DNA of 64,000 bases, taken from the NCBI GenBank assembly GCA_963706715.1, contig CAVPNI010000002.1, positions 480,001 to 544,000 of the forward strand. Direction: 5' to 3'. Within the stretch, counting starts at the first letter, position 1; every line of letters starts with the position of its first letter. The translations under genes were made by a program, and so were the position numbers. The notes beneath the pieces are model-generated. The model saw only the letters and a list, made by a program, of their open reading frames with translations. It did no database searches and was not told the DNA's origin. Source of the stretch: an uncultured Verrucomicrobiae bacterium. Its GTDB lineage: Bacteria > Verrucomicrobiota > Verrucomicrobiia > Chthoniobacterales > Xiphinematobacteraceae. Below, one piece after another: positions 57,666 through 61,265 of the stretch.

Positions 57666-60600
57666 ATGCGCGAATTCCCGGCCTCTCCTATGCAGGCAGC
57701 AGTCCAGACTGCTTTTTTAAGTTCTCTCACCGGCTCGACGGCAAACACGCAGGTCTCCATTAACTTTGGAGAAATCGTGGAAATTTCACTGATCCACCAA
57801 GCTTGGAAGTGGATTGCGCACCATCATGGTTTGCTACGTTCCAGTTTCAAACGCCCCGGTGGAGGCACCCTGACCCTACGTGAACACGAGGACTGCGAAA
57901 TCGCGTGGCGTTCCTTGGATTGGACCAAGATACCTCACGAAGAAATCGCTACAAAATGGCAACAACTCCAAGTCGAAGACGCTTCTGAAACTATCGATCT
58001 GTCAAAGCCACCCCTTTATCGCTTTCACGTCATCAAATTGCCGGGCGGTATCCACCATCTTCTTTGGACCTTTCACTCGATTCTTTTAGACGAAGAATCT
58101 GTTTTTCTCATATTGCAGGACTGGTTACGCATTTACGATTTACTGCGCGGCGGCCAACAGCCCCCATCCTCCACGGGCGCTCTTTCCTATGCGGCTGCGA
58201 TTGGAGCTATCGAGGGGGCAGACGGCGAAACTGCCAGCCGTCACTGGAAAAGCATCTTTCGAGACTTCTCCAATTGGTGTCCTCTACGTCCGCTTTACGC
58301 TGGCAGAAAAGCATCATCTCATGCCTTAATAACCTCTCATACAGAATTTTTTGATCGTGAAACCACGGCTATATTGAAGCAATTGGCTGACTCGGCAGGT
58401 GCATCGCTCTCCACGCTTCTCATGGCAGCATGGGGCGTAGTCCTTGCACGCACGAATATCGACGCAGATGCAATTTTTGGGGTTTATCGTTCCTGCCGTC
58501 CATTGTTAGAATCCCAAACTACAGAAACCGTGGGCCTATTCGACAGCCTTTTACCTGTCTGTCTCAAAGTCCCAGAAGATCTCACTTGCAAGGAATGGCT
58601 GCGTCAACTGGAACAAGAAGAAACAACTTCGGCACATTTTTTACTGACAAGTCCGGAGGACGTTCAAACAAATTTACGAAACAAGCTTCCACGTTTTGAT
58701 AGTACTCTGCATTACCTTCCCGGAAGCATCAATGATCGCATTTCCATGGAAATGCCAGAGTGGACACGTTTTGACGTCCGGCTACAAAAAGCCTCGTTTG
58801 TTCCGATTCGGGTGACTGCTTATGGTGGGGAGCGCCTTTCGATTGTCATTGAATACAACGCTCACCAAGTTCCACCGGTTCTGGCTCGCCAGCTTTTTGA
58901 TCGGCTTCTTAAGGTCATTCGATCTTTCGAAGAAAATCCGAATCAGCAACTTTCTCAAATTTCCATCACCTTGCCTTACGAGGCGGAAAATCTTGTAAAC
59001 GCAGCAAACTCGTTTTCAGAAAGGCTGAATGCCCGTCTCTTGCTGTCTTCATTTGAAGAGATCGTTCAGCAAATCGGTGACCTTCCAGCCGTGGAAAAAG
59101 AAGGAAATTCTCTCAGCTTTTCCTCAATCAATGCCCATTCAAAACAGGTTGCCGCCTTTCTAAACACACACACTCAACAGCAACCGGGCGGTGCCATTGT
59201 AGCTCTCGCCATGCCCCTTTCTCCAAACATGCTCATTGGCTTGTTGGGCATACTTAGAGCAGGTTCCGTTTGCCTTGCTTTGGATCCAAGCGCAGCACCT
59301 GCCGACCTCGAAAAAATTTTCGCGCATTACAAAATTTCTGCGGTCCTTACGGATGATAAAGGCAGCGAAGTTCTCGGGAAGATCCAACAGCCTTCCATTA
59401 GCATCGATCGCCTCTTGGAGGAAATGACTTCTTGTCCGGACGATTTACCTCCTCTGTCTCCGGAACCTTCGGCTCCCGCTCTTTTTGTTCTTCAATCAAA
59501 TGAAGAGCGCATTTTGATCTCTCATGGCACCTTGCAAATCGCATTGAAAAATGCCATCAATACTTACCAGACGAAGCCGGGAGATCGGATTCTCTGCCAT
59601 TCTCTTCAAGGAAGTGCCGCCTCTGTCGAGGAATATCTGGTAGCCCTCTTCACAGGTGCCACGCTTGTCATTCCCGGCAAAAATGCAAAAAGTACCCGGA
59701 CAGCCTTTCAAGAGACCGTGGAATCCGCTCAGATTACGCACTTACGGATTACTGCAGCTTTCTGGAGCCAGTGGGTCCATTACCTCAACGAGCTGGGTCA
59801 CCACACTCCTCCCAACTTGCGTCGGGTTCTCATCGAAGCCGGACATATTTCACGTCCTATCATTGGAGGATGGAGAGAAGTGGTCAAAAATGAGACTGAC
59901 TGCGTCGTATTTTACAGTCCATCCGGTCTTATGGGGATTGGAGTTGCCACAAAAGGGATGCGTGCGCCGGAGTTACCGGATACAGGAATAGTTTGTGACG
60001 GATTAGTTTGTGGGCAGCCACAGCCGGGTACACTAGCAGTCGTTGCCGATCTCCGTCATCGCCTCATACCTTCTCTTTTCCCGGGCATTTTGTTGTTAGG
60101 GATTATAGATGCACCAAACGAGAAGAATCAGGATGCAAATCTCATCAGCTTTAAAATAGGCTCCCGGACTTGGCAGCTTTCATCACCTGAAGAGCGAGCC
60201 CGCTGGAGTGAAAACGGACAATTGATTCTCACCAGTGAGCCACATACAACGCTTCCCGAAGGGCTCACTTGGATGAAACTCCGCCTGATCAAAGAAGCGT
60301 TTACCTCTCATCCTGATGTTATAGACGCTATCGTAGGCAAATGCCCTTCGAAGGACGACCAATTGTGCGCATGGGTTGTTCCTCGCGATAGCCATGCACA
60401 ATTCCCTGACACATTAGAAACTCATTTAAGGGAGCGTTTGCCCAAAAAATGGATTCCTACACTGTTTGTCTTGGTCACGCGATTTAGTTTAAATGCATTT
60501 GATCAAATAGATACCGCGTCGCTTCCTCAACCAAAACCATTGCCTGTTGCAAAACCGAAGGCCCTTTCGACGACGACGCGCTCTGTCTCGTCAAACATTC

Positions 60601-61265
60601 CTCAAAGTCCTCCTCTGTCTATTACCACTCTTCGGACAGGCGCGGTTGATACTTCTCTCTATTTCATCCATGCAGGTCGCGGACTAGCGGAGGATTATCG
60701 GCCGGTAGTTCAAGCTCTCTCCGGAGAATACGGAGTCCATTGCCTTGTCGTGCCACGCGGACGCTTGGCTTCTCCAACCACAGTGGAAGAAATTGTCGGA
60801 CAATTGCTTCCTGTTTTCCGCTTACATGTGAGTGGCAAATTCGCTGTCGCTGGTATTGGCACCGGCGCTGTCTTTGCTTGGGAGTTTGCCCGTCAGTTGG
60901 ATCAAAAACATGAAAAGGATGTGCCATTTATTCTCTTTGAGGCTCCTCCTGCCGGCCGCAAAGAAGCAGCCAGTTGGCTCCATAAAATTCGAAAAACACT
61001 GTTCGGTAATGAATCGACCCCATACGCTCCCTCTGGCCGCTTTGCGGAACTGCTCGCCACCTATCACCCACCTATTCTTCCGCTCAAACCCTATTTTTTT
61101 GTGAGCGGCAAGCCGGATCCGGAGTGGCGACGGCGCGCTCCGCTAGCCATCTGGGGAGAACTTCGTGGTGCTTCCCTCCTGGATCAACCGGAAGAAATAG
61201 CAGGCCTACTCCAAAATATCCTTTCGCCCCTTGGGCGGGAAAATACGGTTTCTTCCAGGAAATAA
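57666..61265 (+). CDS. NRPS-like protein (condensation - degenerate adenylation - thioesterase-like; no PCP)
   Basis: C-domain 'SPMQ', 'HGLLRSSF', 'DLSKPPLYRF', 'TVGLFDSLLP'; A-domain 'ILRAG...LALDP'; TE 'LYFIHAG...G.FAWEFARQL'. Confidence 0.8.
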   Translation: MREFPASPMQAAVQTAFLSSLTGSTANTQVSINFGEIVEISLIHQAWKWIAHHHGLLRSSFKRPGGGTLTLREHEDCEIAWRSLDWTKIPHEEIATKWQQLQVEDASETIDLSKPPLYRFHVIKLPGGIHHLLWTFHSILLDEESVFLILQDWLRIYDLLRGGQQPPSSTGALSYAAAIGAIEGADGETASRHWKSIFRDFSNWCPLRPLYAGRKASSHALITSHTEFFDRETTAILKQLADSAGASLSTLLMAAWGVVLARTNIDADAIFGVYRSCRPLLESQTTETVGLFDSLLPVCLKVPEDLTCKEWLRQLEQEETTSAHFLLTSPEDVQTNLRNKLPRFDSTLHYLPGSINDRISMEMPEWTRFDVRLQKASFVPIRVTAYGGERLSIVIEYNAHQVPPVLARQLFDRLLKVIRSFEENPNQQLSQISITLPYEAENLVNAANSFSERLNARLLLSSFEEIVQQIGDLPAVEKEGNSLSFSSINAHSKQVAAFLNTHTQQQPGGAIVALAMPLSPNMLIGLLGILRAGSVCLALDPSAAPADLEKIFAHYKISAVLTDDKGSEVLGKIQQPSISIDRLLEEMTSCPDDLPPLSPEPSAPALFVLQSNEERILISHGTLQIALKNAINTYQTKPGDRILCHSLQGSAASVEEYLVALFTGATLVIPGKNAKSTRTAFQETVESAQITHLRITAAFWSQWVHYLNELGHHTPPNLRRVLIEAGHISRPIIGGWREVVKNETDCVVFYSPSGLMGIGVATKGMRAPELPDTGIVCDGLVCGQPQPGTLAVVADLRHRLIPSLFPGILLLGIIDAPNEKNQDANLISFKIGSRTWQLSSPEERARWSENGQLILTSEPHTTLPEGLTWMKLRLIKEAFTSHPDVIDAIVGKCPSKDDQLCAWVVPRDSHAQFPDTLETHLRERLPKKWIPTLFVLVTRFSLNAFDQIDTASLPQPKPLPVAKPKALSTTTRSVSSNIPQSPPLSITTLRTGAVDTSLYFIHAGRGLAEDYRPVVQALSGEYGVHCLVVPRGRLASPTTVEEIVGQLLPVFRLHVSGKFAVAGIGTGAVFAWEFARQLDQKHEKDVPFILFEAPPAGRKEAASWLHKIRKTLFGNESTPYAPSGRFAELLATYHPPILPLKPYFFVSGKPDPEWRRRAPLAIWGELRGASLLDQPEEIAGLLQNILSPLGRENTVSSRK

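Follow-up and report, generated by a model that had tools for sequence, protein, structure and literature searches.

Nonribosomal peptide synthetase (NRPS) termination modules such as SrfA-C (2VSQ), AB3403 (4ZXI) and EntF arrange condensation (C), adenylation (A), carrier (T) and thioesterase (TE) domains in the order C-A-T-TE. Here we analyse a gene at positions 57,666 to 61,265 of a 64,000-nucleotide stretch of DNA (the window) from an uncultured Verrucomicrobiae bacterium of the order Chthoniobacterales. Its product shares domain order and predicted fold with these modules and with the C1-A1 part of McyB (8HLK), but it differs from them in that no domain keeps its catalytic residues, the carrier is either deleted or devoid of GGxS, and the gene is a single-copy core gene lacking a biosynthetic cluster. 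We refer to it and its relatives as pseudo-NRPS. Parts of NRPSs are found in housekeeping roles in Lys2, Ebony, carboxylic acid reductases and DltA; unlike pseudo-NRPS, these presumably all retain a functional A domain together with a pantetheinylated carrier. A non-catalytic α/β-hydrolase fold is exemplified by neuroligin, in which the elbow serine is replaced by glycine. A change of this kind is also seen in the TE domain of 57 of the 58 pseudo-NRPS members, although in an unrelated context, so that the likeness is one of analogy only.

The X domain of glycopeptide NRPSs (Tcp12, 4TX2) is likewise an inactive C fold, and two papers describe it as a binding platform inside an active line (PMC10510592, PMC11546977). 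It is one dead domain, marked by HRxxxDD, that recruits P450s to a working assembly line, whereas in pseudo-NRPS the whole module is dead and stands alone, HRxxxDD is absent and no P450 occurs among the conserved neighbours. Dead NRPS domains are known as helpers within working assembly lines; the literature searched offered no example of a whole dead module that descends vertically as a core gene in genomes without an NRPS for it to assist. No paper on this family came up in that search, and term searches in the main texts of two Xiphinematobacter genome papers gave no mention of NRPS or ilvD (PMC7857533, PMC4607532); in a supplement of the former, the automatic annotation reads 'Linear gramicidin synthase subunit B'. 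The family is apparently undescribed.

The window gene is a single open frame encoding 1199 residues. Pfam assigns Condensation to residues 3–443 (143 bits) and AMP-binding to 463–801 (91 bits), with matches below cut-off to AMP-binding_C (877–941) and Thioesterase (998–1098), and none to PP-binding anywhere in the protein. Pfam, a confident AlphaFold2 model (mean predicted local distance difference test, pLDDT, 83; predicted template-modelling score 0.73) and a fold search all place C, A and TE folds in termination-module order. The best fold matches are NRPS structures, namely the C domain of SrfA-C (Z 36.7, root-mean-square deviation (rmsd) 3.6, 421 residues aligned) and SrfA-C as a whole (Z 36.0, rmsd 18.2, 1075 aligned); the best profile match is McyB C1-A1 (E 2.6e-112). 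From residue frequencies computed here the C domain shows the SPMQ/AW/DW pattern, which we take to denote the D-donor (DCL) type. In a hydropathy scan of six members the maxima were 1.5–2.1 and the peak segments fell within the A-domain fold, so the predicted protein is likely soluble. The GC content of the gene is 0.497, that of the genome 0.474. A sequence-only reading of this locus had described just such an uninterrupted C-A-TE frame with degenerate motifs, no carrier between A and TE and no surrounding biosynthetic cluster, in a window where dead genes are visibly broken, and all of these points hold: the motifs read as reported (Table 1), the linker of about 30 residues has no PP-binding match, no cluster is found among the 50 other window proteins scanned, and the broken genes comprise insertion sequence (IS) pieces at 54655–56071 and an IS fragment at 21589.

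Protein searches returned full-length relatives at 45–81% identity, named as from Verrucomicrobia and Ca. Xiphinematobacter. The named members include a Terrimicrobium sacchariphilum protein annotated as 'NRPS component F' (WP_075080827.1) and one from Ca. Xiphinematobacter sp. Idaho Grape annotated as 'linear gramicidin synthase subunit B' (ALJ56751.1). To map the family across the order we ran a 24-row profile over 301 Chthoniobacterales genomes; genomes, loci and families carry G, L and f handles below, f1 being the window's own family. Members scored about 500–1630 bits, or were contig-cut pieces, and ordinary NRPSs at most 418 bits. Member genomes were found in f1 (5/5), f2 (1/2), f4 (3/3), f10 (2/2), f9 (34/39) and f16 (16/17, the seventeenth, the unpublished G157 with two fragment hits, being left out of the count), giving 61 carrier genomes in six families, with one copy each as far as listed. 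With two candidates scored per genome, no member appeared among 233 genomes (including the unpublished G172) of ten other Chthoniobacterales families, nor in a 401-genome sample of the phylum outside the order (best score 429 bits). A search of representative proteins was dominated by multimodule NRPSs, an alignment-based protein search added no further members, the ESM Atlas yielded ordinary NRPS clusters only, and none of three proteins matched the PADLOC anti-phage defence models, a library of described systems. In a tree of 58 members and ten NRPS controls the family forms one clade (support 1.0), within which f1, f4, f9 and f16 each group together. In a 44-row tree of IlvD, the product of the usual upstream gene, the carriers likewise form one clade (SH-aLRT 96), with the non-carrier G005 nested within it and f12 as its sister. 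The simplest reading of these trees is one gain followed by vertical descent.

Loss of the catalytic motifs extends to the whole family. We compared motif columns across the 58 members of full length, of which 54 come from loci and 4 from protein searches (6 partial loci were excluded), with ten single-module NRPSs as controls. Against these controls the window protein is replaced at His138, Gly143, the A3 loop, A5, A8, Lys947 and the TE serine (Gly1065). The second, catalytic His of HHxxxDG is present in 1 of 58 members versus 9 of 10 controls, and its Gly in none versus 6 of 10. The catalytic His column holds 12 residue types (His once and 11 others), and such varied replacements argue that no constraint acts there. 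As for the A domain, with motifs defined as in PMC10510592, the A3 phosphate loop, A5 and the A8 hinge occur in none of the 58 members and the A10 Lys in one, whereas the controls keep them in 10, 9, 7 and 10 of 10 cases, respectively. Some members (L041, L047) also lack part of the small A subdomain. The TE nucleophile column is Gly in 57 members and Asp in one (Ser in 6 and Cys in 4 controls), and all 10 members displayed lack the TE catalytic His at the control position. Compared with the 120 ordinary modules that score best, the family has lost 27 conserved positions in C and 56 in A. The patterns GxSxG and GGxS do turn up anywhere in the sequence in 8 and 2 of 58 members, but we set these matches aside because the aligned catalytic columns have no Ser.

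The A pocket has lost its amine-binding Asp in all but one of the 58 members, which makes the earlier suggestion of a ligand sensor working through the normal amino-acid pocket doubtful. A Glu/Asp-Arg-Glu-Gly set is present there in f1, f9 and P0007, and not in f16, f4, f2 or f10; since it differs between clades, it does not represent a family-wide site. Because the same losses recur in 58 full-length relatives, they are not a matter of chance. To judge from the alignment and the tree they are ancestral to the entire family, and the several independent losses proposed by the sequence-only reading are thus not recent hits in this genome. Certain C domains withstand the loss of the second His (PMC10510592); we infer inactivity as an NRPS from the joint loss of all motifs.

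The carrier domain is deleted in 43 of 58 members, leaving a linker of 28–61 residues. In the window protein the segment between A and TE compares with 98–161 residues in the single-module controls, and the model renders it as a low-confidence coil (residues 961–984, 24 residues). All 15 full-length f16 members, on the other hand, retain an insert of 100 residues whose alignment to carriers is weak (hhalign probability 34, E 4e-4; control 0.1). Its model is helical (pLDDT 80), and 44 of 45 rows listed by a fold search are carrier-protein entries, none of them at E<=0.001; a sequence search of the insert against the PDB gave no match. The column of the carrier Ser is Pro in 13 of 15 and Ser in one, without GG context. 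This carrier-like remnant suggests that the ancestor of the family was a full C-A-T-TE module. The dead f16 domain (for example L062, 4766–5041, minus strand) has 14 invariant columns among the 15 sequences, and so it too seems to be under selection.

The family is under purifying selection. Ratios of nonsynonymous to synonymous substitution rates (dN/dS, Nei-Gojobori) were 0.067–0.326 in 16 of 17 non-overlapping pairs, one being saturated. The value was 0.126 between the window gene and L001, its nearest sequenced relative, and 0.177 between two 0.9-Mb genomes; C, A and TE domains gave similar values. The earlier inference of selection for a purpose other than peptide synthesis is thereby upheld: the orthologue check that it called for found the same degenerate motifs and dN/dS below 1, in what is a single-copy clade marker. 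Its suggestion of a partner of another synthase is not supported. In G003, G004 and G026 pseudo-NRPS is the only condensation-domain match, and G129 has no other. G003 and G004 (0.9 Mb) retain it as the sole AMP-binding protein, next to one carrier protein and one ketosynthase, and G026 has one carrier protein. Since the 0.9-Mb genomes keep pseudo-NRPS as their sole NRPS-like gene, it does not depend on a partner synthetase.

Conservation in the family has shifted to new positions, most of them in the C domain. Positions conserved in the family and not in the nearest ordinary domains number 13 in C versus 4 in A, and the newly invariant residues are concentrated in the N-lobe and latch of the C domain. 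Among 12 invariant positions the only polar ones are Ser31, His131 and Asp370, found in 58/58 full-length and 6/6 partial members (64/64 together); all three occur in 3 of 285 ordinary C domains. In the AlphaFold2 model they lie on strands 27–33, 130–137 and 370–375, the last being the latch, which adds to the N-lobe sheet (PMC10510592, PMC11546977). Covariation in 421 ordinary C domains, with family rows excluded, weakly favours antiparallel registers in which His131 shares a row with residue 33 and Asp370, and Ser31 falls in the adjacent one (mean z 1.0 and 0.6). Judged by alternation, the three residues would sit on a polar face and, as this face bears His137, would line the cleft. They likely meet in the C-domain cleft and may act there as a clamp on the latch, as a ligand site or as a new triad; the new conserved site makes a new catalytic role possible. 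Tryptophans 47 and 86, also considered as family-specific, were rejected, being normal in the nearest ordinary C domains.

The neighbourhood offers one constant partner. In 52 of the 54 loci outside f1 that could be tested (55 were fetched; L091 has no room upstream), the gene immediately upstream, in the same orientation, is ilvD. The gap between the genes has a median of 18.5 nt and is at most 30 nt in 34 of the 52, so that co-transcription is probable. One exception, L071, has other genes upstream; in the other, L074, ilvD is truncated and followed by inserted genes. At this locus (7313–9784, minus strand) ilvD is cut to 377 residues, the two genes between it and pseudo-NRPS look like a restriction-modification pair, and a second intact ilvD lies on another contig. 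Other neighbours are less constant: of 60 loci, 20 have a peroxiredoxin gene, 18 a tetratricopeptide repeat (TPR) protein gene, co-directional with pseudo-NRPS, and about 18 a squalene/phytoene synthase and DUF362. Genes of a branched-chain-type ATP-binding cassette (ABC) transporter converge on pseudo-NRPS in the 0.9-Mb genomes (L034 5834–8327, L035 11690–14200); we did not count them because they are convergent and not conserved elsewhere. The IlvD Pfam model found ilvD in all five genomes tested, including both 0.9-Mb ones. Families f13 and f14 show neither pseudo-NRPS nor this type of IlvD (four genomes of each searched for IlvD). No ilvD match was obtained in any of these eight (G016, G030, G042, G053, G017, G031, G043, G054), which are 97–100% complete and likely represent branched-chain amino-acid auxotrophs. 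A scan for promoters and terminators gave counts at shuffle level, and a search of sequencing runs listed no RNA set and one DNA run with a share of 0.05.

What, then, might a dead module do behind ilvD? In total, a non-catalytic role played through the C-domain cleft seems probable to us. In the form that we tentatively prefer, which we regard as possible rather than likely, pseudo-NRPS would be a non-catalytic binding accessory of branched-chain amino-acid synthesis, the tie to that pathway being drawn from gene order only. A D-donor C-A-T-TE module would have been inserted once behind ilvD in the common ancestor, would have lost all NRPS chemistry early and the carrier domain repeatedly, and would have gained a new fixed site in the C cleft as its working part, made up of Ser31, His131 and Asp370 with Phe34, Pro126, Pro364 and Trp366. 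We guess that the ligand of this site could be a small metabolite of the pathway, such as a 2-oxo acid, a dihydroxy acid or an acyl-thioester, or else IlvD, and that flux would thereby be buffered or tuned. A number of observations speak against such an accessory. The gene is cleanly deleted behind ilvD in G265 and G280, where ilvD is followed by the usual downstream gene, and in G005 it was not found and a different gene stands behind ilvD. Pseudo-NRPS is thus not essential everywhere; in G253 ilvD is missing as well, and that absence is likely an assembly gap. In the sister family f12 a peroxiredoxin-TPR-ilvD block is followed by a different gene in 4/4 loci. The ilvD link is broken in all five f1 loci. 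The same IlvD type is present without pseudo-NRPS in at least seven other families, so it has no general requirement for the protein. IlvD co-evolution is limited to about two positions specific to carriers, and these mostly persist where the gene has been lost. A short intra-operon gap need not reflect a shared function to endure, and the 52 loci, being related by descent, are not independent events. A special IlvD type acquired together with pseudo-NRPS was considered and rejected, as the type is order-wide. A complex prediction for IlvD and the C domain (L040 pair, 46-row alignments) scored 0.00 without controls and is evidence neither way.

Dead motifs under selection are also compatible with a non-catalytic scaffold or binding protein unrelated to IlvD, which landed behind ilvD once and stays there by borrowing its promoter. 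This we consider somewhat unlikely in itself, yet nearly as likely as the accessory role. It would account for the loci where ilvD is not adjacent (f1, L071 and L074), and for an IlvD that works alone elsewhere and shows almost no matching changes; however, the ilvD link outlasts every other neighbour, even the co-directional TPR gene, and the neighbourhoods hold no other candidate pathway. An unlikely but real alternative is a re-tooled enzyme, in which Ser31, His131 and Asp370 would form a triad for carrier-independent acyl transfer or hydrolysis. That they are the only invariant polar residues fits this idea, as do their strand placement, the covariation registers and the general tendency of strongly reduced genomes to retain enzymes over regulators. 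Yet the register signal is weak, His and Asp would sit two strands apart and could simply clamp the latch, and conservation of the A and TE folds is left unexplained. Bolder still, and likewise unlikely, would be a module captured into a primary-metabolism operon whose new site founds a new class of enzymes with the C-domain fold, linked to the metabolism of branched-chain amino acids and indispensable even to a nematode symbiont with a 0.9-Mb genome. That three substrate-binding folds persist without their chemistry might also suggest a decoy whose three dead pockets sequester peptide antibiotics or enzyme inhibitors, if soil- or freshwater-type hosts are assumed. Resistance genes are typically not single-copy, vertically inherited and fixed at one operon site as pseudo-NRPS is, the gene is retained in 0.9-Mb genomes and the A-pocket residues vary between clades, all of which renders a decoy very improbable. 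Hardly better placed is the view that the protein is still an NRPS or ligase with divergent motifs and a carrier in trans. The predicted folds are intact, the second His is dispensable in some C domains (PMC10510592) and the window has a stand-alone carrier-protein gene (25155–25487, minus strand; PP-binding 31 bits) with no cluster nearby. But every ATP-binding element of the A domain is lost with nothing conserved in its place, the small A subdomain can be partly missing, and G003, G004 and G026 have a single carrier protein each. Finally, a decaying pseudogene that happens not to be broken yet would explain the few clean losses, the split copies (L087, in two frames, and one pair among named proteins, both of which may be sequencing errors) and a dN/dS above that of ilvD in all 12 pairs with both measurable. 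We reject it as scarcely credible, unless the protein should turn out not to be made: frames of about 1085–1300 residues stay open at 20–25% identity across six families, and dN/dS is far below 1 in all three domains.

Pseudo-NRPS appears to be a case of secondary-metabolism machinery turned to housekeeping use. The three-residue site offers a handle on a new function of the C-domain fold, and the family has a member in a cultured species, T. sacchariphilum. The findings also correct annotation, as the public labels would credit Xiphinematobacter symbionts with a peptide synthesis that they likely lack.

Table 1. Features of the pseudo-NRPS gene and its divergent neighbour (window coordinates)
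Feature	Position	Strand	Basis
Pseudo-NRPS gene, 1199 aa, C-A-linker-TE	57666..61265	+	Open reading frame, Pfam, AlphaFold, fold match
Condensation-fold domain (aa 3-443), nearest to D-donor (DCL-type) C domains, e.g. McyB C1, SrfA-C	57672..58994	+	
Family-specific motif S31-x-(S/N)-F-G-E, Ser31 invariant	57756..57773	+	Alignment
Family-specific hairpin L125-P126...H131, His131 invariant	58038..58058	+	Alignment
Degenerate C active site HSILLDE, retaining Asp142 but not the second His or the Gly	58074..58094	+	
Family-specific latch motif P364-x-W366...D370, Asp370 invariant	58755..58775	+	Alignment
Adenylation-fold domain (aa 446-960) without A3, A4 Asp, A5, A7, A8 and A10 residues	59001..60545	+	
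LQSNEER at the place of the phosphate-binding A3 loop	59490..59510	+	
FDQIDT at the place of the A10 lysine motif (NGKxDR)	60498..60515	+	
Short Pro/Thr/Ser-rich linker, site of the deleted carrier domain	60546..60617	+	
Thioesterase-fold domain with Gly for Ser in the elbow (GIGTG at 60852) and without the His of the controls at its position	60618..61235	+	
Divergent AhpC/TSA peroxiredoxin gene, left over from the ancestral peroxiredoxin-TPR-ilvD block	56464..57066	-	

In f1 the peroxiredoxin gene is still the divergent neighbour in at least four of five loci, ilvD lies elsewhere and no TPR homologue was found in the window's own genome, which indicates that the ancestral block has been broken there. 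That genome has intact NRPSs elsewhere. Intact genes for NRPSs of 3608 and 10133 residues start 318 bp downstream of ilvD (G000:C3:800591-843829), at the site that pseudo-NRPS holds in other families; their adjacency to ilvD is probably a coincidence, because G001 and G002 have other genes behind ilvD. Between the peroxiredoxin gene and pseudo-NRPS, a 258-bp element (57148–57405) combines perfect terminal inverted repeats of 25 nt with an inner hairpin. In the same genome, blastn finds 219 matches to the intergenic stretch, several of them near full length, and the element looks like a miniature inverted-repeat transposable element. Further upstream, at 54391–56071, a 91-residue fragment resembling an ABC ATPase lies beside an IS3-type element in pieces. 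At the start of the window (108–3311, plus strand), TrbI-like and ClpB-like AAA genes suggest the end of a conjugative element.

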